Part shown: one piece after another, positions 1-35,930 of the stretch
Layout: each line of letters opens with the position of its first letter
How positions within the stretch are numbered: position 1 is the stretch's first letter
Position numbers and translations under genes: made by a program
Origin: an uncultured Poribacteria bacterium
GTDB lineage: Bacteria > Poribacteria > WGA-4E > WGA-3G
DNA: 64,000 nt
Reading direction: 5' to 3'
Assembly: GCA_951828385.1 (NCBI GenBank)
Contig: OX639973.1
Coordinates: forward strand, 2,407,200 to 2,471,199
The notes under the pieces: generated by a model
What the model was told of the DNA's origin: nothing
The model's database searches: none
What the model saw: the letters and a program-made list of their open reading frames with translations, nothing else

Positions 1-135
1 GCTCGTAGTAGTGCGATTCTGCGGCGTACTTGCCCAAATGCGATCTGCATTATCGCACGTCCTAAAGCGCAATAAATTGCGCCACTACGAACCATCTATC
101 GGTTTAGATGTGACAGATTACTATGCATACTACTT
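1..135. repeat. Diverged partial copy of the palindromic repeat family seen at 9433-9813 (cgtagtag ... ctactacgaacc arms). The ORF-track start at 11 is probably an artefact of reading through it.
   Basis: gctcgtagtag...gcgccactacgaaccatc resembles gttcgtagtag...cgcactactacgaacctac of the 127-bp unit. The ORF-track peptide HYEP is shared with ORF 9751. Confidence 0.35.
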
Positions 136-2757: not shown

Positions 2758-3459
2758 ATGGAACAGACTGAGAAAACGGATGTCATTATCACAGAAGGTG
2801 TAACAAGGGTTTATGCAGCGGATGGGGTTCCTGTCAACGCGCTGAATGGGATCGATTTAACCATCCAATCGGGAGAATTTACTGCGCTCGTGGGTCCCTC
2901 TGGTTCCGGTAAAACAACTTTTCTCAATATTATTTCTGGCTTGGACGCGCCCACAGACGGAAAAGTGTGGTTGGCTGGCAAAGTGCTTTCAGAGATGAGT
3001 GGCAACGAACTCTCTGACTTTCGACGCGATAATATCGGGTTCATTTTTCAGGCTTATAACCTAATTCCGGTGTTGACAGTCGAGGAAAACGTTGAATACA
3101 TCATGCTCTTAGCAGGTGTCCCTAAGGCGGAACGACACGAACGGGTTATTGCAATGCTCCAAGCTGTCGGGTTAAAAGGGGTCGCTGACCGTACACCGAC
3201 GCAGCTTTCAGGTGGACAGCAGCAGCGTGTCGCTATTGCGCGTGCGATGGTCTCTGAACCGCAGATTATCCTCGCCGATGAACCGACCGCGAACCTCGAC
3301 TCGAAAACGGGTGCTGATCTGCTTGAGATGATGCGCCGCCTCAACACGGGAACCGGCATGACGTTCATCTTCTCAACACACGATCCGATGGTGATGGAGG
3401 GTGCGACGCGTCTGATTACACTTCGCGATGGACGGGTAGATACTGATGAAACGAAGTAA
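2758..3459 (+). CDS. ABC transporter ATP-binding protein (LolD/MacB-type)
   Basis: Walker A GPSGSGKTT, signature LSGGQQQRVAIARA, Walker B ILADEPTANLD and the H-loop STHD. The start is ATG at 2758, 2 nt after the permease stop. Confidence 0.85.
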   Translation: MEQTEKTDVIITEGVTRVYAADGVPVNALNGIDLTIQSGEFTALVGPSGSGKTTFLNIISGLDAPTDGKVWLAGKVLSEMSGNELSDFRRDNIGFIFQAYNLIPVLTVEENVEYIMLLAGVPKAERHERVIAMLQAVGLKGVADRTPTQLSGGQQQRVAIARAMVSEPQIILADEPTANLDSKTGADLLEMMRRLNTGTGMTFIFSTHDPMVMEGATRLITLRDGRVDTDETK

Positions 3460-3460
3460 T

Positions 3461-3517
3461 AGTTGTCAGTTATCAGTTTTAATAGTTTTCAGTTTTCGGT
3501 TATCAGTTGCCAGTTAA
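3461..3517. repeat. Heptameric array of seven units: GTTGTCA GTTATCA GTTTTAA.. GTTTTCA GTTTTCG GTTATCA GTTGCCA
   Basis: The 7-bp period is visible immediately after the ATPase stop. It is followed by the direct repeat tctgatgagaata x2 overlapping the next start codon. Confidence 0.5.
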
Positions 3518-3548
3518 GAGAGATAAAAATTTCTGATGAGAATATCTG

Positions 3549-4769
3549 ATGAGAATAATCCTGGTACTTGTCATCTATTTAATGACAACACCGCTTGTAG
3601 GGACGGCCGATGCTGAGTTTCAAGCCGGTGGTTACTACAAAAACTTTTCTACTGTATTCAACTCACCGCTCCCAGACGCATCTATGGCGGGGATCGTCGT
3701 CAACCGGTTACGCCTGAATCTCTCCCACACACCAACCGACACACTTTCGTTTGCTCTCGCCTATGATTTTACGCCGCGCGTTCAAGACCCTTTACTCTTT
3801 TCCGAATCTCCGTTTGCTGTCGGTGTCGCTTCATCTCGTTACCGGGTTGTAGATTTTGACGCACGGATCTATCCGAGTACGGATGAAGCAACGGGCAGTG
3901 TCGGCGTCTATCACAACCTTGATCGTGCTGCTGTTCAGTTCAGTACCGATTTTGCAGACTTCTCTATCGGTAGGGACGCGATTGCTTGGGGCAGTGCTCG
4001 GATCATAAATCCAACCGATATTATTGCGCCATATACTTACGATCAGTTGGACACGGAAGACCGCGTTGGCGTAGATGCAGTTCGTGTCCGTATTCCGGTC
4101 GGTGTGATGGGTGAGGTGGATACCGGATACATCTTTGGCAACAACTTCGATTTTGATAAAAGTGCTATCTTTCTCCGAACACAATTGAACGCCGCAGAGA
4201 CAGATTTTTCAATTTTACTGTTGGAATTTCAGAGGGATCTGCTTATCGGTTTCGATGTGGCTCGCGGCATTGGCGGCGCAGGGTTCTGGTTAGAAACGGC
4301 TTATGTCTTTGTTGAACCGTTTGATGATGAACCCGACACATCAGATAATTATCTGCGAACCTCTGTCGGTTTGGACTATAGCTTCGGTGGAGAGACGTAC
4401 GCCTTTATTGAATATCATTTCAATAGCGCGGGTGCGACGAAACCGGAAAATTATCTTACTAACTTAGAGCAATCGGCGTATACCCGTGGCGGTGTTTATC
4501 TGCTGGGTCGGCACTATCTCGCCCCCGGATTTACTCGTCAACTGACACCGTTGGTTAGCTTCAGCGGACAGATGCTGTTTAACCTATCCGACCCGTCAAC
4601 TTGGGTTGCACCGCAAGTTGCCTATAACATCGCCGAGGATATTCACCTCTCTGTCGGCGGTTTCGTCAGCATCGGCAAGCGACCTAAAAATGGCGAATCC
4701 TCCGAATTTCAATCGGAATTTGGCAGTTATCCAAATCTTTTCTTTTCCTCGTTTCGCGTCTATTTCTGA
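3549..4769 (+). CDS. Putative outer-membrane beta-barrel protein (secreted)
   Basis: N-terminal signal peptide, alternating amphipathic beta-strand-like segments, and a C-terminal ...FRVYF ending in Phe as in OMPs. It is co-directional with the ABC exporter genes. Confidence 0.4.
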   Translation: MRIILVLVIYLMTTPLVGTADAEFQAGGYYKNFSTVFNSPLPDASMAGIVVNRLRLNLSHTPTDTLSFALAYDFTPRVQDPLLFSESPFAVGVASSRYRVVDFDARIYPSTDEATGSVGVYHNLDRAAVQFSTDFADFSIGRDAIAWGSARIINPTDIIAPYTYDQLDTEDRVGVDAVRVRIPVGVMGEVDTGYIFGNNFDFDKSAIFLRTQLNAAETDFSILLLEFQRDLLIGFDVARGIGGAGFWLETAYVFVEPFDDEPDTSDNYLRTSVGLDYSFGGETYAFIEYHFNSAGATKPENYLTNLEQSAYTRGGVYLLGRHYLAPGFTRQLTPLVSFSGQMLFNLSDPSTWVAPQVAYNIAEDIHLSVGGFVSIGKRPKNGESSEFQSEFGSYPNLFFSSFRVYF

Positions 4770-6226: not shown

Positions 6227-7855
6227 ATGAGAAAACTATTTGTTTATTCCGTAATTGTTTTTACGATGATTGTTTATACGTCACATGCCGATATGACCTC
6301 GGATCTACAAGCCTATCCGAGTAGTGAATATCTCGTCGGTGTGTCAGAAGGACCAGGAGCTGTCGAATCCCTTATGAATCAGGCAGAAGATCAGTTATCC
6401 AAGAAGATCTTCGACAAGATTAGATATGTTATTAACGAAAACGAAAACGATTGGCTTGCCTACAATCGTGTCCGTGAACACTACAGCACAGTGATCCAGA
6501 GTTCCATAAAATCTAAACTCAAAGGGATTCGGGAATATTATCCCTCCACGGCACCGGATGCCTATGTTATTGTCTACGTTAAGCGTGATATGCTCCAGCA
6601 GATTTATACCGACGAAGCTGCGGATTTACGCCAAGAGATTAACGACCTTCTTCATAAAGCACAGGTCATAGAAAACGCTGGCGATTTATCAGATGCAGCC
6701 AAGATATATCTGAGCACGTACCGATTGTATGAAGCGTTAAAAGAAGCAGAGCTCATTCAATTGGGCGCAGCGTACATAACACCACCTAAGGCATTTTCTA
6801 AATTGTCGGACGCAGCAGGTGGCGTTGCCAAAGCGGATTTGATGATGTCGCATAAAGAAGTCGTTACGAAAGTAGAAAAAATCGCGCCTCAAACGATAAT
6901 TAATATCAACGATGTTGCGCGTGTCACTGCCTATCAATTCCAGCAGCAAAGCAGCGACTGGGGAACTAAGGTGAAGGCGGAGGAACTTACCTACGACAGT
7001 TTCAATGTTGTGAGTCCTTCTTCAACGCCTTTTTTGGAGGCACTTACAAGTGAGTTGAAGTGGCATCGCTCGCTTCCGATGCGAGGGTTCCAACCACTTC
7101 GAGAGGTACATAAGGCTGAATCTCAAGACGATCATTTGCAATTCTTCGGTGGATATTGGGCAGACGGCGACAAAATTACACTACGCACCACGCTACGCGA
7201 TATCGCAACGGGCGAATTTAAGGCGGCGGCTGTTGTACGATTTAGTGAGAGTCAACGCCGAGACAAGGACATCGCGCTAAAACCCGGAAATCTTGAGCAA
7301 TTCGATCAAGATTGGAAACTTTTTAATCCACTTGAAGAGACACTCAGTCTTGAAGAGGTGCAGCCGGTAGAGGAGGAATCACAAACTACAGAGGTTTCGC
7401 CCGCAGAAGTTCCGGCTGAAGAATCCATCGTCAATCCGAAAGTTTTTGTCAACGACGGATTAACTGTTGAAATCGCGACGGATAGGGGTACAGGACCGGT
7501 GGTTTATTCCGAAGGCGAAACAATGACAGTCTTCGCACGTGCGGACCAAGAGGTTTATATCCGTTTAATCTATATCCTTGCGGATGGAAAGCGGACACTA
7601 CTGTTAGACAACCATCATATTAGTTCCGAAATGACTAACCAAAGTTTGGAGATCGGAAAATTTGTGTGTACACCGCCATTTGGCGCGGAGCAGTTGCATG
7701 TTTATGCTAAGCGCGAAGCGTTCCCGGATTTGGCACCGGGGCAAACGTATGAGGAGGGTGGGTACGTCTACCTAACGCCAACACGCGGTTTTCAACCGTT
7801 CAAACCACAGCCTGAAGGGTCTGCACATATTTCTATTACCACTCTACCAAAGTAG
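6227..7855 (+). CDS. Hypothetical secreted protein
   Basis: 542-aa ORF with an N-terminal signal peptide (VIVFTMIVYTSHA). A reasonable RBS, gagaggag, lies upstream. Confidence 0.4.
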   Translation: MRKLFVYSVIVFTMIVYTSHADMTSDLQAYPSSEYLVGVSEGPGAVESLMNQAEDQLSKKIFDKIRYVINENENDWLAYNRVREHYSTVIQSSIKSKLKGIREYYPSTAPDAYVIVYVKRDMLQQIYTDEAADLRQEINDLLHKAQVIENAGDLSDAAKIYLSTYRLYEALKEAELIQLGAAYITPPKAFSKLSDAAGGVAKADLMMSHKEVVTKVEKIAPQTIININDVARVTAYQFQQQSSDWGTKVKAEELTYDSFNVVSPSSTPFLEALTSELKWHRSLPMRGFQPLREVHKAESQDDHLQFFGGYWADGDKITLRTTLRDIATGEFKAAAVVRFSESQRRDKDIALKPGNLEQFDQDWKLFNPLEETLSLEEVQPVEEESQTTEVSPAEVPAEESIVNPKVFVNDGLTVEIATDRGTGPVVYSEGETMTVFARADQEVYIRLIYILADGKRTLLLDNHHISSEMTNQSLEIGKFVCTPPFGAEQLHVYAKREAFPDLAPGQTYEEGGYVYLTPTRGFQPFKPQPEGSAHISITTLPK

Positions 7856-7941
7856 GGCTTACATCTATAAAAGTAAAGTTCCTTATGATATGGGGACGCT
7901 TTGCCATATCCCTTGGCACGCTTCAAAGCTCTGAAAGTAGA

Positions 7942-9453
7942 ATGTTTATGGTCTCTACAAGAAAAATATCTTTATTTTTATTTTTTAGTTTCCTTTGTTT
8001 TGTGATCGTATCCATCGCCTCTACCGAGTTATTTTCGCAACGCGGTATGAGTGTTACTATCCGCACAGAGAACGGGGAGGAGTTTGCTCTCTATAAGGAT
8101 TCTTATGCGCTTATTATTGGAAATGGCGCATATCCAGTGAAAAACGGTTGGAATCCGCTTCCGGGTGCAGTAGAAGATGTCAAAGAAGTCGCAGAAGTCC
8201 TTGAACACCATGGGTTCAATGTGACGCTGAAAATAGATGTAACGAAGACTGAGTTTAATCAAGTATTTTCGGAGTTTATCTATGAATTTGGTAAAAATAA
8301 GGATAATAGACTTCTGTTTTATTATGCAGGGCATGGTTACACGACAAAAGCAGCAACAGGTGAGGACCTTGGCTACCTTGTGATGCTTGATACGCCGAGT
8401 CCTGAGAATGCTGCAGCATTTGACCTCTATAGTGTCGATATGGTCAAGTTCGTATCGGATTCTAAGAAGATTCACGCCAAGCATGTTCTTTTTATGTTTG
8501 ATAGCTGCTTCTCAGGCACAGTGCTAAACCTGAGAAATCGAGTTACTCCCTCCCATATTACGGATCGGATTAAGAATCCTGTGCGCCAGTTCATCACAGC
8601 CGGTCGTGCGGATGAACCCGTGCCAGATAGGAGCGAATTTAAGAAAGCATTTTTGAATATCCTTGAAGGGCGCGTTGAAGAACCGACACCAGATGGTTAC
8701 CTGACAGGTGTTGAGTTGGGAGATTACCTCTATCGAACAGTCCCAAAGTTCTCTCAAGGACAACACCCGCAACATGGAAAGATTCACGATCAGCAATTGA
8801 ACACTGGTGATTTTGTGTTTGTGCTTTCTCAGAACAATAGTGAGGATAATGGCGTTGAGTTAGATACGATAGCGATGTTAAACATAACCAGTAACCCGAG
8901 TGGCGCAATGGTTTATGCTGATGGCATCCTAATCGGGATAACACCGTTAGATAGTTACGAGATTGACACAGGTCCTCGTCTTGAGAAACAGGTAAATATA
9001 GGTTTAGAACTTTCAGGCTACAAGAGCCGTGTTAAAAAAATAACGTTAAAAGGTGGTCAACAGTTCCCGTGGAACGTGCCTTTAGAGAAAATGACGAGCA
9101 AGCCTGCTGAATCCATAACTGATGTTCAGAGGGATGAAGAAACTGCAACGTATCTCTCGCTGGTGTCTGATAATCCACATATTCTTGTACCGATAAACGA
9201 TATGAGGGAATGGAGTGGGTGGAATGGTTGGTTCTGGGAAAAAGTGAAAGGTGAACAACCTACTGAACGGCCTTCTATTTTTTCAGGCAATTATGCGGAT
9301 AGATTTGACCATTGGATGTACTCACATGCCGAAAGCCATATCGTCTATGATATAAGCGGTGGTGAATACTCTCAATTTGATGGGAATTTAATTACACCCA
9401 GCTCATGTATAGAAACCATTGAACTCATATTTCTAGTAGTGCTTCAATGTTGA
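7942..9453 (+). CDS. Caspase-domain (peptidase C14) protein. This is the 5' part of a caspase–NPCBM-like–FGE-sulfatase gene truncated by a stop inside the 127-bp tandem repeat.
   Basis: Signal peptide, then caspase His/Cys dyad motifs YYAGHGY and FMFDSCFSG. It is 90% identical to paralogs at 11043 and 14675 over the caspase region. The C-terminal HIVYDISGGEYSQFDGNLI matches the N-half of an NPCBM-like module. The stop TGA at 9451 lies in repeat copy 1. Confidence 0.6.
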   Translation: MFMVSTRKISLFLFFSFLCFVIVSIASTELFSQRGMSVTIRTENGEEFALYKDSYALIIGNGAYPVKNGWNPLPGAVEDVKEVAEVLEHHGFNVTLKIDVTKTEFNQVFSEFIYEFGKNKDNRLLFYYAGHGYTTKAATGEDLGYLVMLDTPSPENAAAFDLYSVDMVKFVSDSKKIHAKHVLFMFDSCFSGTVLNLRNRVTPSHITDRIKNPVRQFITAGRADEPVPDRSEFKKAFLNILEGRVEEPTPDGYLTGVELGDYLYRTVPKFSQGQHPQHGKIHDQQLNTGDFVFVLSQNNSEDNGVELDTIAMLNITSNPSGAMVYADGILIGITPLDSYEIDTGPRLEKQVNIGLELSGYKSRVKKITLKGGQQFPWNVPLEKMTSKPAESITDVQRDEETATYLSLVSDNPHILVPINDMREWSGWNGWFWEKVKGEQPTERPSIFSGNYADRFDHWMYSHAESHIVYDISGGEYSQFDGNLITPSSCIETIELIFLVVLQC

Positions 9454-9813
9454 GTTTATAGGTAATCCTGTTCGTAGTAGGGCAATTCATTGCCCGTTGC
9501 TGACGTGCGATAAATCGCACTACTACGAACCTACCCTCAGATTCAAAGTTGAAAGACTACTAGTAGTGCTTCAATGTTGAGTTTATAGGTAATCCTGTTC
9601 GTAGTAGGGCAATTCATTGCCCGTTGCTGACGTGCGATAAATCGCACTACTACGAACCTACCCTCAGATTCAAAGTTGAAAGACTACTAGTAGTGCTTCA
9701 ATGTTGAGTTTATAGGTAATCCTGTTCGTAGTAGGGCAATTCATTGCCCGTTGCTGACGTGCGATAAATCGCACTACTACGAACCTACCCTCAGATTCAA
9801 AGTTGAAAGACTA
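9433..9813. repeat. Tandem repeat of 3 x 127 bp with nested palindromes (gttcgtagtag/ctactacgaac arms; gggcaattcattgccc; tgcgataaatcgca)
   Basis: Units start at 9433, 9560 and 9687 and are identical by eye. The total of 381 bp equals 127 codons. The repeat lies between the two halves of the split gene. Confidence 0.9.
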
Positions 9814-10899
9814 CTAGTGGATAACAAAGTTGTCTATAACTCAGGTCGGGTTAGGGTTTTTGAACCTATGCGTGTTGCATTCAACATACCTGCTGACGCC
9901 AAAACTCTGACGATCCGCGTAACAGATGGCGGCGATGGGGGCAGATGCGATCACTGGATACTTGGAGACGCACGTCTACTGGAAACTCGGCAACCTATCT
10001 CCGCTAAACCAAAACCGGATGTCCCACAGACAACCATTGAAAATGACATCACCATAAACCAGGAAGCGCGATCGCCCTCGCCAAATATGCCACAAACGGT
10101 TGTTGGAAAGGATGGGGCGGAAATGGTGTTAATTCCGGCAGGCGACTTCCAGATGGGGAGCGGGGCCGGTCGCCTTTACAATGCCGCGACAATTCCTGTC
10201 CATACTGTCTATATTGATGCATTTTACATTGACAAATACGAGGTGACCGTTGGGCGATACAACCAATTTGTCCGTGCCACTGGACATCGTCCGTTGCCGG
10301 ATTGGATGTCTAAATATTCTCCAACAGACCAGCATCCGGTTGTCGGTGTAACTTGGGACGACACAATAGCATACGCGAAATGGGCAGGCAAACGACTTCC
10401 AACAGAAGCGGAATGGGAAAAAGCGGCAAGGGGTGGTTTGATAGGAAGAGACCACCCGTGGGGTAATGCTCCGCTGGACGGTACACAGTGCAATTTTGCC
10501 GACAAAAGTCTGTGGGAAGTTTGGAACGAAGAACGGAATGATGAAGATAATGATGCGGATAAAAGTATTAATGATGGTTACGCGTACACCGCCCCGATTG
10601 GCAGTTACCCACCGAACGGATATGGTTTATACGATATGGCAGGGAATGTGGCAGAATGGTGCTTTGATGCGTATGATGAAAATTTTTACGCCAATTCTCC
10701 TCGGCGGAACCCAGTTGCAGATATACTTATACGAGATGGTGAAAATAACATAGTCGCTATTAACAAATTGCGCGTTGTGCGAGGCGGTTCCTGGTACCAT
10801 TGGCCGGTGGCAGTGTGGATTGCCTGTCGTACCCCGAATTCGCCTACGCTGCGTCACAGAAACGGCGGTTTTCGCTGTGTGAAGTCGGTAACGCCCTGA
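9751..10899 (+). CDS. 3' fragment of the split gene: NPCBM-like C-half plus an FGE-sulfatase (formylglycine-generating-enzyme-like) domain. It may be translated from an internal ATG.
   Basis: Same reading frame as 7885..9453. VVYNSGRVRVFEP...VTDGGDGGRCDHWILGDARLLE matches the C-half of the NPCBM-like domain of ORF 16736. The FGE motif is YAKWAGKRLPTEAEWEKAARGG...YGLYDMAGNVAEWC...RGGSW. Confidence 0.5.
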   Translation: MLTCDKSHYYEPTLRFKVERLLVDNKVVYNSGRVRVFEPMRVAFNIPADAKTLTIRVTDGGDGGRCDHWILGDARLLETRQPISAKPKPDVPQTTIENDITINQEARSPSPNMPQTVVGKDGAEMVLIPAGDFQMGSGAGRLYNAATIPVHTVYIDAFYIDKYEVTVGRYNQFVRATGHRPLPDWMSKYSPTDQHPVVGVTWDDTIAYAKWAGKRLPTEAEWEKAARGGLIGRDHPWGNAPLDGTQCNFADKSLWEVWNEERNDEDNDADKSINDGYAYTAPIGSYPPNGYGLYDMAGNVAEWCFDAYDENFYANSPRRNPVADILIRDGENNIVAINKLRVVRGGSWYHWPVAVWIACRTPNSPTLRHRNGGFRCVKSVTP

Positions 10900-11042
10900 A
10901 TCTTTGGACCTTTGTCTGTCGCGTCTGATGCCCAAACAAACTGGAAACTAATGCATTTTTAGGATTGGTAAATCTTTAGCCCTCGTTAGTCGCGAGTTCC
11001 TTTCAACTAAAGCCTATAAGCGCAAATTGCATATAGTACCTT

Positions 11043-13175
11043 ATGAAAAAAATACCTTTATTTTTATTTTTTTATATTCTTTGCGGTGTAACCATGCTAA
11101 TTGTTGCAACCGAGCTGTTCTCGCAACGCGGTATGAGCGTTACTGTTCTCACAAAGAACGGGGAGGAATTTAACCTCTATAAAGATTCATACGCTTTGGT
11201 TATTGGAAATGGAGCATACCCCGTAAAGAACGGTTGGAATCCGCTCCCCGGTGCGATAAAGGATGTCAAAGAAGTCGCAGAAGTTCTTGAAAACCAAGGA
11301 TTTAATGTCACCCTGAAAATAGATGTGACAAAAGCTGAGTTTAACAAAGCGTTTTCGGAGTTCATCCATAAATCGGGGAAAGATAAAGATAACCGACTCC
11401 TGTTTTACTACGCGGGTCACGGTTACACGACGAAGGCGGCAACAGGTGAGGATCTCGGCTACCTCGTTATGCTCGATACACCGAGTCCTGAGAACACTGT
11501 CGAGTTTGATCTCTATAGTGTGGATATGGTCAAATTTGTGTCGGATTCCAAGAAGATTCATGCCAAACATGTCCTATTTATGTTCGATAGCTGCTTCTCA
11601 GGGACAGTGTTGAACCTGAGAAATCGTGTTACGCCCTCCCATATTACGGATCGGATTAAGAATCCTGTGCGCCAGTTCATCACAGCCGGTCGTGCGGATG
11701 AACCCGTGCCGGATAGGAGTGAGTTCAAGAAGGCGTTTTTGAACATCCTTGAAGGGCGCGTTGAAGAACCGACACCAGATGGTTACCTGACAGGTGTTGA
11801 GTTAGGAGATTACCTCTACCGAACGGTCCCAAAGTTCTCACGAGGACAACACCCACAACATGGGAAAATCCACGACCAGCAGCTCAATACAGGTGATTTT
11901 GTGTTTGTGCTTCCTCAAAACGATCAGAGCGGTAGTGAGGATACCGGTATTGAGTTGAACACGATAGCAACGTTGGACATAACCAGCACACCGAGTGGCG
12001 CAACGGTCTATGTTGATAGTATCGCAATCGGCATAACCCCCATTAAAGACTATCAAATTGATACCGGTATCCGTCTTGAAAAGCAGGTGAATGTCGGGTT
12101 GGAACTTTCAGGCTATAAGAGTCGTGTTAAGAAAATGACACTGAAAGGTGGTCAAGAGTTCCCTTGGGACGTATCTTTAGAAAAAATGGCCACACAACCC
12201 CTATTGCCGAAACCAAAGTCCGATATACAGGAAACAATAGTTGAGAAAGATGTTGATGTCAATGAGACGGAACCGGAGGAAATGACAAAAGAACCGGTGT
12301 CGCCAAAACAAAAGCCAAGTGTGCCAGAGATAATAGTTGAAGAAGATGTCAGCATCAATAAAAGAGAGCGTCTACCATCTACAGATTTGCCGCAGAGGAT
12401 TGTAGGCAAAGACGGTGCTGAAATGGTATTGATCCCGGCTGGGGACTTCCAGATGGGAAGCAACCATACTGGCGATTCTAATGAAAAGCCTGTGCATACG
12501 GTTTACGTTGATGCATTCTATATGGACATTCACGAAGTGACAGTTGGACAATATTATCAATTTACTGTTGCCACTGGACATCCCGCACCATCATACTCGC
12601 TTTCTCCATTTTCTCCGACAGATCGACATCCAATGGTCTATGTGAGTTGGCACGACGCGATGGCATACGCGAAATGGGCGGGTAAACGTCTACCGACAGA
12701 AGCAGAGTGGGAGAAAGCCGCACGCGGTGGCTATATTGGTCAGAAATATCCGTGGGGTAATGGTCCACCGGATGGGACCCAGTGTAATTTTGCGGATAAA
12801 AGCGGGGCGAACTCAGGCAGGTGGGAAAATTGGGATAAGAGTGCTGATGATGGTTACGTGTACACTGCTCCCGTCGGCAGTTATCCACCGAACGGATATG
12901 GTTTGTATGATATGGCAGGTAATGTATGGGAGTGGTGCTTTGATGCCTACGATGCGAATTTCTATGCAAGTTCTCCACCTCGGAATCCGATTGCAGGCAT
13001 CATTGTAACAAATATGACCGATAATTCAATAACTGTGAATGAATCTCGTGTGTTACGAGGCGGTTCTTGGACTCCTCATCCTCAAAATGTGCGTTCTGCA
13101 CACCGATGGTCATACGGAGCACATTCAGTGAGCTTCTCTGTTGGTTTCCGTTGTGTGAAACCAGTAACGCCTTGA
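11043..13175 (+). CDS. Caspase (C14) – FGE-sulfatase fusion protein, secreted (intact paralog)
   Basis: Signal peptide, caspase motifs AGHGY and DSCFSG, a Pro/Glu/Lys-rich linker, and a C-terminal FGE-sulfatase domain (RLPTEAEWEKAARGG, GNVWEWC, RGGSW). Confidence 0.8.
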   Translation: MKKIPLFLFFYILCGVTMLIVATELFSQRGMSVTVLTKNGEEFNLYKDSYALVIGNGAYPVKNGWNPLPGAIKDVKEVAEVLENQGFNVTLKIDVTKAEFNKAFSEFIHKSGKDKDNRLLFYYAGHGYTTKAATGEDLGYLVMLDTPSPENTVEFDLYSVDMVKFVSDSKKIHAKHVLFMFDSCFSGTVLNLRNRVTPSHITDRIKNPVRQFITAGRADEPVPDRSEFKKAFLNILEGRVEEPTPDGYLTGVELGDYLYRTVPKFSRGQHPQHGKIHDQQLNTGDFVFVLPQNDQSGSEDTGIELNTIATLDITSTPSGATVYVDSIAIGITPIKDYQIDTGIRLEKQVNVGLELSGYKSRVKKMTLKGGQEFPWDVSLEKMATQPLLPKPKSDIQETIVEKDVDVNETEPEEMTKEPVSPKQKPSVPEIIVEEDVSINKRERLPSTDLPQRIVGKDGAEMVLIPAGDFQMGSNHTGDSNEKPVHTVYVDAFYMDIHEVTVGQYYQFTVATGHPAPSYSLSPFSPTDRHPMVYVSWHDAMAYAKWAGKRLPTEAEWEKAARGGYIGQKYPWGNGPPDGTQCNFADKSGANSGRWENWDKSADDGYVYTAPVGSYPPNGYGLYDMAGNVWEWCFDAYDANFYASSPPRNPIAGIIVTNMTDNSITVNESRVLRGGSWTPHPQNVRSAHRWSYGAHSVSFSVGFRCVKPVTP

Positions 13176-13341
13176 ACTTTTTTACCTTTGTCTGATCCGC
13201 CTGATGCTCAAACAATTTGGAAACTGATGCATTTTCAGGATTGGTGAATCTTTAGTCTTCGTAGGTCGCGAGTTCCTTTCAACTAAAGCCTATAAGCACA
13301 AACTGCGTATAATATCCAATGAAAAAAATACCTTTACTGAT

Positions 13342-14676
13342 ATTTCTCAAAAGTTATTGTAAAGCAATGATTATCAGGGTTCTTTTGGTATTATTGTATG
13401 AAAATGCGTTATGAAGTCCGTAAGCGTCTGTCTTTCTCCAGTGAGTTGAAGTTGTATTTGATGAAAAGTGCGTCGTTCTGAGATGCTCATTTGTAGCAAC
13501 ATCAGATAACTCATCACTTTTATACCGAGGCTCACATACGCCCCTTGTCTGCTTTCGAGGCTCATGGCAGAGACGTGGAGGTTCGATTTGAAGTGCCGCC
13601 AAAACTGTTCAATACCGTGGTGTTGAGACCAAATCCTGAGAGCCTCAGAGGTGCGTAGGGGTTTTCCAAAGACTAAAAGGGTTCGTATCTTGCCTCTATC
13701 TCGGAAAAATAGGACGACACATTCCCCGAAAGTTGGACTTTCTGCTTTGAGGCGACAGGCGGGTTTATCACAGCCCCATTGATCCGCAGCCAGCGCCACG
13801 CGTCTTTTATGAACCGAAAGTTTCGCCTTTGTATCAGCGATAGTCATGACGTAGTTATTTTTTCCGTGAATCAATATAGAGGTAAACCCCAACTCCGATA
13901 AAGCCTCAACAAGTTTACGGCTCCCATACCATGAATCGAAGGTGATTGGATATTTTCTGATGTCTATGCCGTGGGTATCAAAGAACGCTAAGACTTCTTG
14001 GATCATGGTGATAACGAGAGTAGGTTTATCTGTGTTGCCGCGTCCTTGTTTACTGACGAGACGCATATCTAAGGGGATCACGCGATCTCCGCATTTCAGT
14101 GTGATGCCTAAGAGGTTCTGACACCAGATAGGCGTATTGTGTTTTTTCGAGTAGTAGTTTGAACAGTAAGATAACGTCTCGCCTTCACGCGGGAGATTGC
14201 TATCATCAATACTGACGGTGATACACCGCCGCGATTGTGTTGAAGCACTCTTACTTTCAGTGTCTTTGATGAAATCAACTGCCATCGCACATCCGAGCCG
14301 GAGATTCAAACATTTCGAGTGATAAAGGCTCAGGTTTCCAAGACTGCGATAAAGACGTGCTTTGGGAAGTTTCAAAGCATCGGCGACTTGATTCGGATTG
14401 TAAAGTCCAAAAAGATGGCAAACACAGAGCAGAAGTAGCGTCTCAACGATTTGCTGCCGCATCCGCTGAAAGTAAGAAGAAAGAAGGTCTTGAAAAAAGA
14501 TTGTAGATTTGATAAGGTGATCCTGCATGAGATGGCCTCCTAAAGGTTGTAGTTATCTCTTAGGATGCCATCTCATGCGCTAAAAATCAAGAAACTTTTT
14601 CAAAACCATCGCATTTTCACTTGGCTACACCTGCGATCTCTTGATTATTATTACCTCCTTGATAGATTTGAGAAAT
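13342..14676 (-). mobile_element. IS element of about 1.3 kb (IS701/IS4-like) inserted into codons 7-8 of the third caspase–FGE paralog
   Basis: The ends atttctcaaa... and ...tttgagaaat are imperfect inverted repeats. Upstream, 13176-13341 duplicates the promoter region and ATGAAAAAAATACC start of paralog 2. The flanks read through in frame (…ctg at|g cca gct…). Confidence 0.6.
13374..14528 (-). CDS. DDE transposase (IS701/IS4 superfamily-like)
   Basis: VSIDDSNLPREGE (DDT-like first Asp), FDSWYGS (second Asp), a downstream ...SLESRQG...K signature, and a length of 384 aa. Confidence 0.55.
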   Translation of the reverse strand: MQDHLIKSTIFFQDLLSSYFQRMRQQIVETLLLLCVCHLFGLYNPNQVADALKLPKARLYRSLGNLSLYHSKCLNLRLGCAMAVDFIKDTESKSASTQSRRCITVSIDDSNLPREGETLSYCSNYYSKKHNTPIWCQNLLGITLKCGDRVIPLDMRLVSKQGRGNTDKPTLVITMIQEVLAFFDTHGIDIRKYPITFDSWYGSRKLVEALSELGFTSILIHGKNNYVMTIADTKAKLSVHKRRVALAADQWGCDKPACRLKAESPTFGECVVLFFRDRGKIRTLLVFGKPLRTSEALRIWSQHHGIEQFWRHFKSNLHVSAMSLESRQGAYVSLGIKVMSYLMLLQMSISERRTFHQIQLQLTGERQTLTDFITHFHTIIPKEP

Positions 14677-16711
14677 GCCAGCTTTATTTCTATTTTTTTG
14701 TATTCTTTGCGGTGTAACCATGCTTATTGCTGCAACCGATTTGTTTTCGCAACGCGGTATGAGTGTTACCGTCCAGACCGAGAGTGGAGAAGAGTTCGGT
14801 CTCTATAAAGACTCCCATGCGCTGATTATTGGAAATGGTGCATATCCCGTGGAGAACGGTTGGAATCCGCTTCCGGGTGCAGTGAAAGATGTTAAAGAAG
14901 TTGCAGAGATCCTTGAACGCCACGGATTCAAAGTAACCCTGAAAATAGATGTGACAAAGACTGAGTTCAATGAGGCATTTTCAGAATTTATCTACGATTT
15001 TGGTAAAGATCCGGACAACCGACTTCTATTTTACTACGCGGGTCACGGTTACACGACGAAGGCGGCAACAGGTGAGGATCTCGGCTACCTCGTCATGCTT
15101 GATACGCCAAGTCCTGAGAACGCCGCCAAGTTTGATCTGTATAGTGTGGATATGGTCAAGTTTGTATCCGACTCCAAGAAGATCCACGCCAAGCATGTGC
15201 TATTTATGTTTGATAGCTGCTTTTCTGGAACGGTGCTCAATCTTAGGAATCGGGTTACACCATCCCACATTACAGATCGAATCAAAAATCCGGTGCGTCA
15301 GTTCATCACAGCAGGTCGTGCCGATGAACCTGTGCCGGATAGGAGTGAGTTCAAGAAGGCGTTTTTGAACATCCTTGAAGGGCGCGTTGAAGAACCGACA
15401 CCAGATGGTTATTTGACAGGTGTCGAGTTAGGGGATTACCTCTACCGAACGGTGCCGAAGTTCTCACGAGGACAACACCCGCAACATGGAAAAATCCACG
15501 ACCAGCAGCTAAACACCGGTGATTTTGTGTTCGTACTTTCTCAAAACGATCAGAATGGTAGCGAGGATAACGGTATTGAGTTGAACACGATAGCGACGTT
15601 GGACATAACCAGCACACCGGCGGGCGCGAAAGTCTACGTTGACGGCAACTGGATTGGTACGACTCCGTTGCGCAGTTATCAATTTGATACGGGTATTCGT
15701 CTTGAAAAACAGGTGAATGTCGGCTTAGAGCTTTCGGGTTACAAAAGTCGTGTTAAGAGAATAACGCTAAAAGGCGGTCAACAGGTCCCGTGGGATGTGC
15801 ATTTAGAAAAGATAGAAAGAAAGCCGATACAACCGAAGCCGAGCGTGCCAGAAACACCTCCTGAGAAAGGTCCGAGTATCAGTGAAGAAAAACTGTTGAT
15901 TTCCCGGAATACGCTACAGACAATAGTTGGAAATGACGGTGCTGAGATGGTACTGATTCCAGCCGGCGAATTTGAGATGGGGCACAATGGTACGGCAATA
16001 ACAAAACCTGTGCACACTGTCTACGTTGATGCATTTTACATCGATAAATACGAGGTCACTGTTAGGCAATACAATCAATTCGTTCGTGCCACTGGACATC
16101 CTCCCTTACCGGATTCAGTATCTAAGTATTCTCCAACAGATCAACACCCCGTTGTCCTTGTGACTTGGGATGATGCGATGGCATACGCGAAGTGGACAGG
16201 AAAAAGACTTCCGACAGAGGCGGAATGGGAGAAAGCGGCGCGCGGTGGTTTAGCAGGAAAACGGCATGCCTGGGGCGATGCTGCGCTGGATGGAACACAG
16301 TGTAACTTTGCAGATAAGAGTTTGAACGAAGTGTGGGAGAAAGAAAGAAAACCAGAAGATAATTGGGCGGATAAAAGTATTGATGATGGTTACACACACG
16401 CTGCTCCTGTCGGTAGTTATCCACCGAATGGATATGGTTTATACGATATGGGGGGGAATGTGGCAGAATGGTGCTTTGATGCGTATGATGAAAATTTTTA
16501 TGCCAATTCTCCGCGTCGCAACCCAATAGCAGATATACTTATAAGAGATGGTGAAAATAATATAGTCGCTATTAATAAATTGCGCGTTTTGCGAGGTGGT
16601 TCTTGGTACTATTCGCAAGGGACAGTGTGGATCGCCAGTCGCCTTGGGATTGATCCCAAAAACGCGGCGAGCAGCCAAGGTTTTCGTTGTGCGAAATCGG
16701 TAGATCCTTAA
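14675..16711 (+). CDS. Caspase (C14) – FGE-sulfatase fusion protein. The N-terminus was rebuilt by the IS insertion, with the ATG lying at the IS junction.
   Basis: MPALFLFFCILCGVTMLIAA retains a hydrophobic leader. Caspase and FGE motifs are as in the paralogs. Confidence 0.7.
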   Translation: MPALFLFFCILCGVTMLIAATDLFSQRGMSVTVQTESGEEFGLYKDSHALIIGNGAYPVENGWNPLPGAVKDVKEVAEILERHGFKVTLKIDVTKTEFNEAFSEFIYDFGKDPDNRLLFYYAGHGYTTKAATGEDLGYLVMLDTPSPENAAKFDLYSVDMVKFVSDSKKIHAKHVLFMFDSCFSGTVLNLRNRVTPSHITDRIKNPVRQFITAGRADEPVPDRSEFKKAFLNILEGRVEEPTPDGYLTGVELGDYLYRTVPKFSRGQHPQHGKIHDQQLNTGDFVFVLSQNDQNGSEDNGIELNTIATLDITSTPAGAKVYVDGNWIGTTPLRSYQFDTGIRLEKQVNVGLELSGYKSRVKRITLKGGQQVPWDVHLEKIERKPIQPKPSVPETPPEKGPSISEEKLLISRNTLQTIVGNDGAEMVLIPAGEFEMGHNGTAITKPVHTVYVDAFYIDKYEVTVRQYNQFVRATGHPPLPDSVSKYSPTDQHPVVLVTWDDAMAYAKWTGKRLPTEAEWEKAARGGLAGKRHAWGDAALDGTQCNFADKSLNEVWEKERKPEDNWADKSIDDGYTHAAPVGSYPPNGYGLYDMGGNVAEWCFDAYDENFYANSPRRNPIADILIRDGENNIVAINKLRVLRGGSWYYSQGTVWIASRLGIDPKNAASSQGFRCAKSVDP

Positions 16712-16735
16712 ATCGTTATTTCTTATTTTCAACCT

Positions 16736-18898
16736 ATGAAACACATTATCATTTTACTTGCCTTAACGCTCCTTGCCTTGAATGCTTATAGTGCCAAAGA
16801 GGACTGTCATAACCTTGCCGGAGCGGGACCACAACCGATCCGAAAAGTCGCCAATGAAAACCTTGGCACTATCAACGACTATGAAACTGTTGTCAAAGAG
16901 GATACACGCGATGGTGTGACCTATCTATCCTTTATCGGTGGTAGCCAGCCCAAACCGAACGCCTGCGGACTCAATCCGAAAAACGCCAGACTCAACTGGA
17001 CAGGTTGGGGCGGTCCTATTGATACCGATAACGCCAGTATCGGTCAAGGTGTTGGGTTTCGTAACGAAATCGTTATTGGTGGTATCTATTTTGAGCGCGG
17101 ACTCGGTACGCATGCGAACGCCAAGATCATCTATAACCTCACTGGCGGCGATTATGTTAAATTTGAAGGGTATATCGGCATGTCAGACGAGACGGATCCA
17201 GATGCTTGTGGTAATGCTGGAAGTTCGATTTTTACTTTTAAGGTTGATGATAAGACAGTTTTTGAATCCGGAACCATCCAGGGCGCGGTTAACGGACTGA
17301 ATGTCCCACCAGTGAGAGTTTCTTTTGATATTCCCCCCAATGCGAAAGAGCTCGAAATCATCATCAATACTACAGAGGACGGAGCCTGTGCTGATCATGC
17401 AACGGTTGCTGATGCTAAACTCCTTGATGCTGATGCTGCAGCCACCACTACAACCCCTGAGACACCGATGACCGTCACGACAAGTAAACGGCTGGTGCGT
17501 GTCATCTATTTCGTGCCACTTAACCAGGCGCGGCAATGGAATTTTGAGGATACGCTTGATATACAACTGAAAGAGGTGCAGCAGATCTACGCTGAGCAGT
17601 TAGAAGAACACGGTTACGGCAGAAAAACTTTTGAAATCGAAACGGACAGCGACGGTAAGGTTGTAGTGCATTTTATCTCTGGTAGACAAAGTGACAAATA
17701 CTATCACACTGACACAATCCGCAAAGTTACTGATGAAATCAAGGCGCGCTTTAATGTTGAGCGCGATGTTTATCTCGTTGCTATTGAAAGCAGTGCAGAA
17801 CTGATTGAAGGAAGCTGCGGTGTCGCGTATTTAGATGGTGGCCCCGCGCTTGTCATATCGGCTGGTGATTGTGTCTCTAGTGATTACGGTGTCCCGTTGA
17901 TTGCGCATGAGCTCGGGCACGCCTTTAACTTAGAACACGATTTCCAGGACGATAGTTATTTTATGTCCTACGGGAGTAGTCGCCGAAAGTTTTCGGCATG
18001 CTCCGCAGCTGCGTTGAGCGTCAGCCCGTTCTTGAATCAAGAAGATCCTTATATCGCGACTGGTAATGGACAGTCTACAATGGAATTGGTTTCAGAACCG
18101 GTCTATCCGGAAAATGGCAGCAGTCATACGCTCCAGTTCAAAGTGGGTGACGCAGAGGGTATTCACATTGTTCACTTTCTTGTACCGCATCGCACTATAG
18201 ATCCGATGACCTCCAGCACAGGGGCAACGGTCTACGATTGCAAGAAACTCAACGATGTTAAAAGCGCGACCGTCTCATTTGAATTGCCGGAATACTTTAT
18301 GACTTTCCGTACCAATAAGGTCCATATCCGCATGTTTGATGTCCAGGGCAGCAGTATCGCGAAGGAGTGGACACTTACTGCTGACAATATAGAACCTATC
18401 ATTGTTGAGAACCACACGGATGTCAATAGCGATGGTGTGGTCAATCTCGTCGATCTTGTGATTGTCGCGTCGCGGTACGGTGAACGTATCACAGGCGATC
18501 CGAACCCGAATCCCGATGTCAATCGCGACGGCATTGTGGACATCAACGACCTTATTCTTATCACAAACGAGATGCCTGTCGGTGTTGCACCTACACAACT
18601 CCCAATCGCTACACAACTTTTTCATAACTACCCCAACCCGTTCAACCCTGAGACGTGGATACCGTATATACTCTCGTACTCCGCCGATGTCTCTATTGAG
18701 ATCCATGCAACCGATGGCAACCTCGTTAGACGCTTGGCAATCGGACAGCAACCGGCAGGCCTCTACGTAAACAAAGCGAATGCCGCCTATTGGGATGGCA
18801 GAAACGCCTTTGGTGAACCTATCGCAAGCGGTCTCTATTTCTATACGCTCATTGCTGGTGATTATGCAGCAACCCGCAAAATGATCATCCGAAGATGA
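16736..18898 (+). CDS. Secreted multidomain zinc metalloprotease: NPCBM-like domain, metzincin-like HELGHAFNLEHD site, dockerin type-I repeat pair, and a T9SS-like C-terminal sorting domain
   Basis: Signal peptide. NPCBM-like segment GTHANAKIIYNLTGGDYVKF...EDGACADHATVADAKLL. HEXXHXXXXXH with downstream Asp. DVNSDGVVNLVDLV...DVNRDGIVDINDLIL. C-terminal NYPNPFNPETWIPY...LYFYTLIAGDYAATRKMIIRR. Confidence 0.6.
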   Translation: MKHIIILLALTLLALNAYSAKEDCHNLAGAGPQPIRKVANENLGTINDYETVVKEDTRDGVTYLSFIGGSQPKPNACGLNPKNARLNWTGWGGPIDTDNASIGQGVGFRNEIVIGGIYFERGLGTHANAKIIYNLTGGDYVKFEGYIGMSDETDPDACGNAGSSIFTFKVDDKTVFESGTIQGAVNGLNVPPVRVSFDIPPNAKELEIIINTTEDGACADHATVADAKLLDADAAATTTTPETPMTVTTSKRLVRVIYFVPLNQARQWNFEDTLDIQLKEVQQIYAEQLEEHGYGRKTFEIETDSDGKVVVHFISGRQSDKYYHTDTIRKVTDEIKARFNVERDVYLVAIESSAELIEGSCGVAYLDGGPALVISAGDCVSSDYGVPLIAHELGHAFNLEHDFQDDSYFMSYGSSRRKFSACSAAALSVSPFLNQEDPYIATGNGQSTMELVSEPVYPENGSSHTLQFKVGDAEGIHIVHFLVPHRTIDPMTSSTGATVYDCKKLNDVKSATVSFELPEYFMTFRTNKVHIRMFDVQGSSIAKEWTLTADNIEPIIVENHTDVNSDGVVNLVDLVIVASRYGERITGDPNPNPDVNRDGIVDINDLILITNEMPVGVAPTQLPIATQLFHNYPNPFNPETWIPYILSYSADVSIEIHATDGNLVRRLAIGQQPAGLYVNKANAAYWDGRNAFGEPIASGLYFYTLIAGDYAATRKMIIRR

Positions 18899-19173
18899 AA
18901 AGTTCACACATCATCTGTAGACTGGAGGGTTGAGATCACCTCTTTTGGTTTTACCAAATAGTGGATTTGGGCAGATACGTTCTCATATCCTGCAGTCCAT
19001 TGAAATGTCTACGTATTTTTTATTCCACTATAAAATGCCCCTATGCTAAACTGATACAGTAGTTTGGACAATTCATGTCGCATTTCAGTTGCGTTCTCAA
19101 AGGTTGAAAGGGTTTTCTTTGGTGTTTCATCTGCCACAGAACTCGCTGAAAAATAACGGTAACTGCGAATTTG

Positions 19174-19242: not shown

Positions 19243-19272
19243 ACTGTCCAAACTTTAGTAAACTGATACATT

Positions 19273-35769: not shown

Positions 35770-35805
35770 ACCACAACGGGCAATGAATTGCCCGACTACG
35801 AACAG
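35770..35805. repeat. Solo fragment of the palindromic repeat family (gggcaatgaattgccc + gactacgaac)
   Basis: Matches the core hairpin and right arm of the 127-bp unit at 9433-9813. Confidence 0.45.
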
Positions 35806-35930
35806 GACCACTCTTAATTTCAATATGGACGAAGCACTATGTATATTTAGACGCAAAAGTTGTTTATGCGTTTATTTTTTTCGTAACCAGAGTCGCTCAA
35901 CCAAGTCTCCGCCTGTCATTGTAAAAAGCG

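Follow-up and report, generated by a model that had tools for sequence, protein, structure and literature searches.

A 381-bp tandem array in a 64-kb stretch of DNA from an uncultured Poribacteria bacterium (the stretch as a whole is referred to as the window) is inserted in a gene that is otherwise intact, and its repeating unit is a MITE-like element, with a target-site duplication (TSD) and inverted arms, that belongs to a dispersed family and carries a RAYT-associated REP doublet at its centre. The account that we consider probable is that this REPIN-carrying element inserted once, that local amplification then raised the block formed by the element and its TSD to three copies, and that the gene was thereby left as a split pseudogene. 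The repeat falls within described classes (GTAG REP/REPIN and MITE) and is not a new class.

Direct string comparison revealed that positions 9433-9813 consist of 3 x 127 bp with units that are 100% identical, and Tandem Repeats Finder called the region 9433-9818 with a period of 127, 3.0 copies and 100% matches, in agreement with a preliminary description of the locus. The nested inverted repeats listed in that description, including an 11-bp arm pair, are all present in the unit (GTTCGTAGTAG/CTACTACGAAC, GGGCAATTCATTGCCC and GTGCGATAAATCGCAC), and a single unit is predicted to fold into a strong hairpin structure, both as RNA (-54.5 kcal/mol, z = -7.6) and as DNA (-26.2 kcal/mol, z = -6.1). 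The 127-bp period is accounted for by a 5-bp TSD, CTAGT, and a 122-bp element in which imperfect terminal inverted arms of ~30 bp enclose a 61-bp REP hairpin pair. The array and the gene that it interrupts comprise the following features, the ends of the element being those found when 11 family copies were aligned together with flanking sequence:

7885..9453, plus strand: 5' gene fragment (caspase/Peptidase_C14, PEGA, first half of NPCBM)
9433..9437: TSD copy 1, CTAGT (found again just after the array, at 9814-9818)
9438..9559, plus strand: element copy 1, 122 bp (left arm 9438-9469, REP doublet 9470-9530, right arm 9531-9559)
9470..9495, plus strand: REP monomer 1 of copy 1 (tag GTTCGTAGT, AG, 7-bp stem GGGCAAT/ATTGCCC, loop TC), recurring at 9597-9622 and 9724-9749
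9505..9530, minus strand: REP monomer 2 of copy 1 (tag GTTCGTAGT, AG, stem TGCGAT/ATCGCA, loop TT), recurring at 9632-9657 and 9759-9784
9560..9564: TSD copy 2, CTAGT, separating elements 1 and 2
9565..9686, plus strand: element copy 2, same sequence as copy 1 (REP doublet 9597-9657)
9687..9691: TSD copy 3, CTAGT
9692..9813, plus strand: element copy 3, same sequence as copy 1 (REP doublet 9724-9784)
9814..9818: TSD copy 4, CTAGT, which also forms the first host bases (codons L-V) past the array
9814..10899, plus strand: 3' gene fragment (second half of NPCBM, FGE-sulfatase domain)

A 12-bp palindrome, ACTACTAGTAGT, spans the junction of elements 1 and 2. With stop codons in all six frames the array is non-coding, and a scan of it for sigma-70 promoters and intrinsic terminators returned nothing above chance. 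Since the predicted fold has the shape of a three-way junction, we also considered a structured RNA or hammerhead-like ribozyme; this was rejected, as Rfam 15 gave no match at gathering score anywhere in the window, a permissive search returned only chance miRNA-like hairpins (18-21 bits, against gathering scores of 52-80), and the core motifs of the hammerhead were absent by eye.

The two ORFs on either side of the array, 7885..9453 and 9751..10899, share one reading frame. The upstream ORF consists of host sequence to 9432 plus the TSD, and its final six codons and stop (TGA at 9451-9453, 21 nt into copy 1) are element-derived, while the listed downstream ORF opens at a TTG (9751) inside the REP linker of copy 3. 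When the 381 bp are deleted, a single ORF of 877 aa results with the order caspase-PEGA-NPCBM-FGE, in which one Pfam NPCBM match (residues 461-571) crosses the junction at 516|517, bearing out the earlier proposal that a single NPCBM domain had been split. The uninterrupted gene was indeed found in relatives: the restored ORF aligns gaplessly over the junction (...IETIELIF|LVDNKVVYNSG...) with ~38 orthologues at 60-90% identity, the named ones being Candidatus Poribacteria, and the virtual empty site aligns with the DNA of two loci, L001 and L002, with 0 gaps and 94% and 91% identity, respectively. Each of these orthologous empty sites carries one 5-mer (TTAGT in L001, CTGAT in L002). Because excision of the 381 bp restores the gene exactly, in protein and in DNA, the array is a pure insertion that carries no host sequence with it, and the only sequence that the repeat shares with the host is the 5-bp TSD. 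The suggestion in the preliminary description that the repeat carries part of the host gene thus fails; the heptapeptide FKVERLL does arise, as was stated there, from translation of the unit's 3' end, but it replaces no NPCBM residues, since orthologues without a gap at the junction leave no room for it. Because stops in all frames cut the protein short halfway through its NPCBM domain, the gene appears to be a recent split pseudogene. Intact-looking paralogues adjoin the broken gene.

Three loci of the family lie within the window. The array copy is intragenic, in a conserved ORF, and the other two are intergenic:

1..124, minus strand: diverged family copy, a long-linker variant cut by the window edge
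35774..35838, minus strand: half copy with one arm and one REP monomer, GTTCGTAGTCGGGCAATTCATTGCCC

Both had been noted previously as diverged copies of the core, and both exist, with limits that now stand at 1-119 and 35774-35838 and with the second amounting to half a copy. In the copy at the start of the window the arm ends at 119 and the flanking 5-mer ACTAT occupies 120-124 (ATAGT on the element strand); an FtsX/MacB-type permease gene has its ATG 12 bp downstream of this copy.

When 11 copies from the window and from public contigs were aligned (family copies are 121-163 bp long), homology was found to end exactly at matching 5-nt flanks with the consensus NTAGT. Six of the flanking 5-mer pairs match at 5/5 positions and five at 4/5. 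In a permutation test that preserves target preference, the 61 total matches (52 expected) were reached in 0 of 20,000 shuffles, and the six perfect pairs compared with 1.9 expected (P = 2.5e-4). IS630-derived MITEs have TA as their TSD, whereas the TSD here is 5 bp (NTAGT); an IS630-type MITE with a TA duplication at CTAG was rejected since flank positions 1, 4 and 5 also co-vary (ATATT/ATATT, ATAGT/ATAGT), which implies a duplication of 5 bp, not 2. For the composite, co-variation of the outer flank positions likewise led us to reject an IS200/IS605-like insertion 3' of a fixed tetranucleotide without duplication.

The terminal arms form a 32-nt pair that is 72% complementary, and across the 11 copies their conservation is mainly confined to the outer ~12 nt ((T)AGTNNTTCAA/GTCA). 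A test for arm-arm co-variation, as in a selected long hairpin, found none, the arms of a given copy being no more complementary to one another than to the arms of other copies, so that the arms act like transposase-type TIRs rather than a selected hairpin. Arms without the REP core, which bear on the possible nesting of a REPIN within an older MITE, were never seen in a sample that was selected for the core and is hence biased, and no long element bounded by the arms was present in the ~1.4 Mb of fetched loci. A literature search for Poribacteria MITEs found no paper. These data support the initial view of a non-coding, palindrome-rich, MITE-like dispersed family that has expanded in tandem at this site.

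The core of the element is a GTAG-tagged REPIN/BIME unit. Its two monomers form a head-to-head heterodimer with GTAG on the outside, in which the doublet arms (9470-9497 and 9503-9530) are 28 nt long, 82% complementary and separated by a 5-nt gap; in the predicted fold an 11-bp tag stem closes both hairpins. Using a scan defined by the tag alone, we collected 270 monomers, and among the matches listed a perfect stem of at least 5 bp directly follows the tag in 76%, compared with 3% in shuffles; their loops are TT or TC. Hairpins with the GTTCGTAGT tag and TT/TC loops were found in many phyla. Each of two collection scans yielded at least 120 loci. A viral collection yielded only 15 tag-pair matches and none for the arm, and hence no sign of a phage origin, while a literature search for the 9-mers returned unrelated primers only. 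The preliminary description did not recognise the repeat as belonging to any described class, but the 61-bp core is a head-to-head GTAG REP dimer of a known kind (PMC3733652, PMC3116915).

Genes for REP-associated tyrosine transposases (RAYTs, which are Y1 HUH enzymes) are flanked within ~100 bp by these same REPs at several loci. This is the case in L174 and L220, where REPs occur on both sides of the gene, in L245, a contig of 6.5 Mb whose REP core is of the Poribacteria type, in L246 (Chloroflexi), with three tandem doublets upstream of the RAYT gene, and in L243 (Cyanothece PCC 7424), with the variant tag GTTAGTAGT; in addition, RAYT remnants adjoin REPs in L086 and L099. One RAYT clade is directly flanked by these REPs in Poribacteria-type, Chloroflexi and cyanobacterial loci. 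The best NCBIfam match is REP_Tyr_transpos, at 77.7 and 69.6 bits, slightly below the 80-bit cut-off. The RAYT gene that lies beside the syntenic loci L001 and L002 was rejected as a partner, as it belongs to another clade (29% identity) with its own REP family, GGTAGTAGGCACGCTCCGTCGTGCC. The sole transposase gene in the window is that of an IS701-like element (13337-14681), which was rejected as the autonomous partner because its termini, CTGRYATTTCTCAAA, are unrelated, and neither the window nor the ~1.4 Mb of fetched loci yielded an autonomous element whose terminal repeats match.

The core shares many features with GTAG REP/REPIN/BIME sequences and their RAYT/TnpA-REP genes (PMC3733652, PMC3116915, PMC8266576), including a stem-loop after GTAG, an inverted 'HH' heterodimer with GTAG outside and 2-nt TY loops, a dispersed family, a RAYT gene flanked by the same REPs (a REPtron, seen here at related loci), tandem reiteration of the doublet and occasional intragenic copies. 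REP dimers within longer palindromes, tandem clusters and intragenic copies have been described (PMC3733652, PMC3116915), and members of the GTAG REP class have been reported from Cyanobacteria, Chloroflexi and the PVC group. Here, however, the doublet sits inside conserved ~30-bp inverted arms as part of a composite with a 5-bp TSD, whereas the papers cited (PMC3733652, PMC3116915, PMC8266576) describe none for REPINs. Furthermore, the tag is longer, at 9 nt (GTTCGTAGT), and is conserved across phyla, the array is intragenic and disruptive rather than extragenic (intragenic exceptions are documented in PMC3733652), and the Poribacteria host lineage is not covered by the GTAG REP surveys. The nested palindrome of A. 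variabilis also has a REP doublet at the centre of a conserved longer palindrome, and there too no outer palindrome lacking the REP was found. Its arm sequences are unrelated, and the paper on it reports neither flanking duplications nor empty sites, whereas here an orthologous empty site and a TSD delimit the mobile unit.

Bacterial MITEs such as Correia/NEMIS, RUP, ERIC and Nezha (PMC3184786, PMC10969869) resemble the element in their length (100-160 bp), non-coding nature, TIRs, TSD, strong predicted hairpin, dispersal and sometimes intragenic position. The present family differs from them in its centre, a RAYT-type REP doublet, and in that no cognate insertion sequence was identified in the window and the ~1.4 Mb of loci. 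The tandem arrangement is paralleled by the REPIN clusters of P. fluorescens SBW25 (PMC3116915 Fig. S7) and the BIME-2 arrays of E. coli (PMC3337134), in which a doublet with short flanks is repeated head-to-tail, perfectly or near-perfectly, in up to 5-12 units. Those arrays lie between genes and lack a known pre-insertion sequence, whereas here the unit boundary coincides with a TSD and orthologues supply the ancestral sequence. Finally, Rickettsia palindromic elements (RPEs) and in-frame intragenic REPs (PMC3733652) likewise place a palindromic repeat inside a protein-coding gene. RPEs, like most intragenic REPs, keep the reading frame and are translated, in contrast to the array described here, which has stops in all frames and truncates the protein.

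As to the origin of the array, we propose that the composite moved as a MITE and was inserted by an enzyme that would have made a 5-bp staggered cut at NTAGT-like sites. Such cuts are typical of DDE-type transposases. After this single insertion, the block of element plus TSD would have been amplified locally from one to two to three copies, the likely route being replication slippage or unequal recombination between the 5-bp flank repeats and later between whole units, a process that the strong hairpin of the element would aid. No differences separate the three array copies, whereas identity falls to 96% for the nearest copy elsewhere and to ~80% for the other copies in the window. One family locus, L197, displays a 94-bp tandem duplication of flank, TSD and half an element, which transposition cannot produce. 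Arrays in which REPs are repeated together with flanking DNA were seen in other phyla as well and are known from the literature (PMC3733652, PMC3116915, PMC3337134).

An alternative, which we regard as unlikely though the strongest of the rivals, has the same first insertion followed by two further transpositions into the regenerated CTAGT. The target consensus NTAGT is indeed regenerated at each junction, and re-insertion there would yield a structure identical to the product of slippage. However, a genome of ~6 Mb holds thousands of NTAGT sites, so that use of the same 5-mer twice needs a strong local preference. Moreover, the three copies are identical where other family copies differ by 4-20%, there is no further full tandem among ~17 family copies, and the duplication in L197 shows a slippage-type event within the same family.

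It is less probable still that the insertion is real but that its copy number of three is an outcome of assembly. Short reads cannot count a perfect tandem repeat with a 127-bp unit, 127 is a commonly used maximum k-mer, and some relatives come from k127 MEGAHIT assemblies (L001). Against this, the period has a biological account in solo copies of 122 bp with a 5-bp TSD, and a window that is contiguous over 64 kb and holds an IS and further repeats points to an assembly of good quality. Reads spanning an element-TSD-element junction would be needed to create a de Bruijn cycle with a period of 127, which implies that at least two tandem copies exist.

We are more doubtful again about a reading of the whole 122-bp composite as a long REPIN, in which the outer arms are degenerate GTAG REPs and a RAYT (an HUH single-strand nuclease), not a DDE enzyme, mobilises the element, with amplification perhaps arising through rolling-circle-like re-initiation by the RAYT. 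The core REPs do flank RAYT genes, and the arms hold GTAG followed by a 5-bp palindrome (TTCAA..TTGAA). In addition, the arm terminus together with the TSD reads TAGTAGTGC, the same as 9 nt of REP monomer 2; the element ends and TSD thus mimic the REP tag, which makes a role for a RAYT in moving the composite possible. In this family, however, the 5-bp duplication co-varies between flanks, bare REP doublets occur across phyla without such a duplication, the arms do not co-vary to maintain a hairpin, and there is no RAYT gene in the 64-kb window. Single-strand 'peel and paste' of the IS200/IS605 type does not duplicate its target. The relationship to IS200/IS605 is described in PMC8266576, where the mechanism of REP spread is unsettled and HUH 3'-OH priming is proposed, and tandem REPIN arrays lack an explanation (PMC3337134). 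That a RAYT of this clade moves the 122-bp composite, makes the 5-bp target duplication and seeds arrays with the element-plus-TSD period is in our judgement similarly doubtful; if true, the insertion chemistry of RAYTs would be unlike IS200/IS605 'peel and paste', and the locus would provide the first sequence-level footprint of REPIN/BIME spread and array formation, which are treated as unresolved in PMC8266576 and PMC3337134.

We give virtually no credence to the idea that the repeat carries host NPCBM coding sequence or that the 381 bp are a translated or switchable insert: while 381 is divisible by 3 and the 3' end of the unit gives FKVERLL in the frame of the gene, orthologous proteins and DNA are gap-free at the junction, several stops in each frame mean that no copy number restores the reading frame, and solo copies occur in unrelated contexts.

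For annotation, the ORFs 7885..9453 and 9751..10899 represent one recently broken gene and no new domain architecture. The conserved ORF around the insertion fixes the pre-insertion sequence to the single base, and this shows that the array unit is exactly the element plus its 5-bp duplication, making the array an unusually well-defined REP/REPIN-type insertion. The 9-nt tag GTTCGTAGT is common to REPs across many phyla, and the RAYT/REP system reaches Poribacteria that are probably sponge symbionts, the closest named relatives of the genome being Candidatus Poribacteria, which live in sponges. The formation of tandem REPIN/BIME arrays and the spread of REPs have been stated as open questions (PMC3337134, PMC8266576), for which this locus, together with the matching 5-bp flanks of the family, offers a concrete footprint.

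At window positions 9433-9813, a MITE-like element with a REPIN (an inverted REP doublet) inside stands three times in tandem, forming a clean insertion in a caspase-PEGA-NPCBM-FGE gene that is otherwise intact. As the preliminary description had claimed, the flanking ORFs (7885..9453 and 9751..10899) have a common frame and the upstream one is stopped by a TGA in copy 1. This TGA lies 21 nt into the copy; the split protein ends after half of its NPCBM domain, and the FGE half is without an obvious start. Exact removal of the 381 bp yielded an 877-aa ORF with Peptidase_C14 (caspase), PEGA, NPCBM and FGE-sulfatase domains, in which one NPCBM match (residues 461-571) crosses the junction between residues 516 and 517. 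A database search returned many uninterrupted orthologues (~856 aa, 84-90% identity); several orthologues come from sponge metagenomes, and remoter ones bear the name Candidatus Poribacteria. The unit had also been thought to carry host sequence (translated as 'FKVERLL'), which the orthologues refute: 38 are gapless at the junction (...IETIELIF/LVDNKVVYNSG..., the slash marking it), and the virtual empty site, the window sequence minus 381 bp, aligns as DNA with the orthologous loci L001 and L002 at 94% and 91% identity, with 0 gaps each. Since stop codons also occur in all six frames of the array, the unit is without host coding sequence, and a 5-bp repeat is all that host and unit have in common. 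The insertion is probably recent, because the remaining gene shows no further lesions.

Three such caspase-PEGA-(NPCBM)-FGE paralogues lie in tandem at 7885-21348, followed downstream by a glycogen-branching/amylase-type gene, in the gene order of L001 and L002; an NPCBM-metallopeptidase-dockerin gene (16736..18898) is extra in the window relative to both. Mobile elements have inserted into two of the three paralogues, the third paralogue holding an IS701-like element after codon 6 (original ATG at 13319):

IS701-like insertion sequence: 13337-14681, 1345 bp; transposase 13374..14528, minus strand; termini CTGRYATTTCTCAAA
Target-site duplication (TSD) of the IS701-like element: CTTTA, 13332-13336 and 14682-14686

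An in-frame ATG at 14675, from the element's right end, is present, and the ORF now starts MPALFLFF..., against MKKTPLFLFF... in the L002 counterpart.

Tandem Repeats Finder reported period 127, 3.0 copies and 100% matches (9433-9818), and string comparison of the 127-mers bore out that the three units are identical; every nested inverted repeat named in the preliminary description was found again. CTAGT forms both edges of the array and also stands between units, the period thus comprising 5 bp plus a 122-bp element. This element consists of a 61-nt core between a left arm of 32 nt (AGTGCTTCAATGTTGAGTTTATAGGTAATCCT) and a right arm of 29 nt (CTACCCTCAGATTCAAAGTTGAAAGACTA); the two arms match imperfectly as inverted repeats, at 72% over 32 nt. 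The core reads GTTCGTAGT-AG-(GGGCAAT TC ATTGCCC)-linker-(TGCGAT AA ATCGCA)-CT-ACTACGAAC, that is, two stem-loops with GTTCGTAGTAG ahead of each on its own strand. Folding predictions give a single unit very high stability, both as RNA (-54.5 kcal/mol, z = -7.6) and as DNA (-26.2 kcal/mol, z = -6.1); an Rfam search gave no matching family for the repeat. Short reads give no copy count for a perfect 127-bp tandem, and such an assembly cycle would require at least two real copies.

Diverged copies had been proposed elsewhere in the window, and both loci held up with refined limits:

1-119, minus strand: diverged family copy, cut by the window edge
35774-35838: half copy of the family

Between them, a genome scan and a metagenome scan using the core pattern turned up solo copies that share these arms and lie in unrelated surroundings, the closest among the matches listed being L196 (96% identity across all 127 bp). 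When 11 copies were aligned, each with 12-nt flanks, similarity ended exactly at a 5-mer repeated on either side.

Table. Flanking 5-mers of the aligned copies (copy: left, right)
Window: CTAGT, CTAGT
L073: CTAGT, CTAGT
L216: CTAGT, CTAGT
L187: ATAGT, ATAGT
L197: ATAGT, ATAGT
L206: ATATT, ATATT
L196: CTAGT, CTGGT
L223: TTAGT, TTAGG
L191: CTATT, CTATA
L230: CTAGT, CTAGG
L104: CTACT, CTACG

As a null, right flanks were shuffled among 15 copies with the NTAGT target preference kept. Flank matches totalled 61 against 52 expected, a value reached in 0/20,000 shuffles, and perfect pairs numbered 6 against 1.9 (P = 2.5e-4). Since flanks match beyond this null and the orthologous empty sites hold a single 5-mer of this kind, comparison of the copies identifies the 5-mer as a TSD, and the element (121-163 bp) behaves accordingly as a MITE. 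Co-variation of 5-mer positions 1, 4 and 5 between flanks ruled out both an IS630-type 2-bp TA duplication and an IS200/IS605-type insertion without duplication. The arms are of several sequence types found in mixed pairs, are no more complementary within one copy than between copies, and are conserved only in their outer ~12 nt; they resemble terminal repeats that a protein recognises more than a long hairpin under selection. Because family loci were picked by the core motif, the lack of arms without core is uninformative.

Short tandem repeats (CTGATAA x4.3, a 23-mer x2 and a 13-mer x2.3) lie between ABC-transporter permease genes at 1488-1517, 3457-3501 and 3528-3557, and repeats of a similar kind (ATAACTGA) border the L196 copy.

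The preliminary description had not recognised a described repeat class, but the core fits the 'GTAG-tagged REP' superfamily reported from Proteobacteria, Cyanobacteria, Chloroflexi and the PVC group, including its head-to-head dimers and TY loops (PMC3733652). Scanning one genome per species with GTTCGTAGT-N35-65-ACTACGAAC gave at least 120 loci, the matches listed including Cyanobacteria, Planctomycetota, Chloroflexota, Acidobacteriota, Verrucomicrobiota, Lentisphaerota, Desulfobacterota-like MAGs, KSB1 and four Candidatus Poribacteria MAGs. Nearly everywhere the plan is alike (tag, 0-2 nt, 5-8-bp stem, 2-nt TT/TC loop, linker, mirror image), with stem sequences varying by lineage; a perfect stem of at least 5 bp directly follows the tag in 76% of 270 distinct monomers, against 3% when shuffled. 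A 9-nt tag, GTT(C/A/T)GTAGT, with TY-loop hairpins is common to doublets of many phyla (L003-L122, L243, L245, L246); the publications consulted describe GTAG as the tag, and the extended form was not found in their text. Bare doublets across phyla gave no direct-repeat signal at their borders, and their flanks are often inverted-complementary. The Poribacteria-type core itself occurs naked, within the element's arms, or within other inverted flanks. At three loci (L147 8671-8732, L205 4052-4114, L138 1303-1365) it is centred in inverted GAGGACGAGGACGA-like, acidic-repeat-like flanks, which suggests either that it inserted into palindromic targets or that its flanks were duplicated in inverted form. 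An intergenic perfect palindrome in the window (56483-56509; GTAGGGGTTGGGT(T/A)ACCCAACCCCTAC, GTAG on both strands) could be a REP of yet another type, or else a terminator.

Genes for REP-associated tyrosine transposases (RAYTs) lie within ~100 bp of these REPs at L174, L220, L245, L246 and L243. Their products show NHYH as the HUH motif and have the catalytic Tyr within (L/V)NYI(H/N)xNP; in NCBIfam they match 'REP-associated tyrosine transposase' best, slightly under cut-off. REPs stand on either side of the gene in L174 and L220; L245 is a 6.5-Mb contig with Poribacteria-type cores; L246 (Chloroflexi) has three tandem doublets upstream; and in L243 (Cyanothece/Gloeothece PCC 7424) the gene adjoins a five-unit array with the variant tag GTTAGTAGT. 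In L086 and L099, both Poribacteria loci, REPs have RAYT remnants beside them. One RAYT clade is flanked by 9-nt-tag REPs in Poribacteria-type, Chloroflexi and cyanobacterial loci. A second, unrelated one, 29% identical to it, occurs in the loci syntenic with the window, L001 (13900-14877) and L002 (18200-19250). Its own REPs are arrayed on either side, three 50-bp units of GGTAGTAGGCACGCTCCGTCGTGCC at one flank and GTAGCAGGCATACTCCGTATGCCGTCCGCC x2 at the opposite flank; the window lacks this REPtron, a RAYT flanked by its own REPs.

The array most probably arose by a single insertion followed by local amplification of the element plus its TSD. This is favoured because the three units are identical while other copies among the matches listed differ by 4-20%, because L197 holds a tandem duplication for which slippage or recombination is the sole possible origin, and because REP arrays that take in some flanking DNA are seen again in other phyla and in the literature. 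The L197 duplication (~1130-1320, minus strand) is a slippage-type product of 94 bp, comprising 31 nt of flank, the TSD, the left arm and the first REP hairpin, at which it ends. Arrays with flanking bits are known in Pseudomonas and E. coli, with no accepted mechanism (PMC3116915, PMC3337134, PMC3733652). Tandem doublet arrays were also observed in L077 (Microcoleus; 1-850, at least 11 units of 77 bp), L013 (Chloroflexota; 3700-3920, 3 units of 69 bp), L246 (1645-1930, 3 units of 100 bp) and L050 (a deltaproteobacterial MAG; 6379-7091, 5-6 units of 127 bp), the last period being a coincidence since its spacer is an unrelated hairpin. Further insertions into the regenerated CTAGT target would have produced the same structure, and we consider this route unlikely.

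As to how the element reached the gene, the sequences display insertion with a TSD, inverted arms, a dispersed family and a REP-doublet core with RAYT-flanking relatives. The composite is probably moved by an enzyme making a 5-bp staggered cut, the usual signature of DDE-type transposases, at NTAGT-like sites. No partner insertion sequence was found in the window, the IS701-like element 3.5 kb downstream having different ends. That a RAYT moves the whole 122-bp composite is a minority reading and seems improbable, even though the arm termini resemble REP (TAGTAGTGC) and how REPs spread is open in the literature (PMC8266576).

The initial interpretation thus stands as to a dispersed MITE-like element expanded in tandem, and falls as to carried host sequence and an undescribed class: the element belongs to well-described repeat classes, for which the host lineage is new. 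What it offers is an insertion resolved to the single base, of use for the question of how REP arrays arise.
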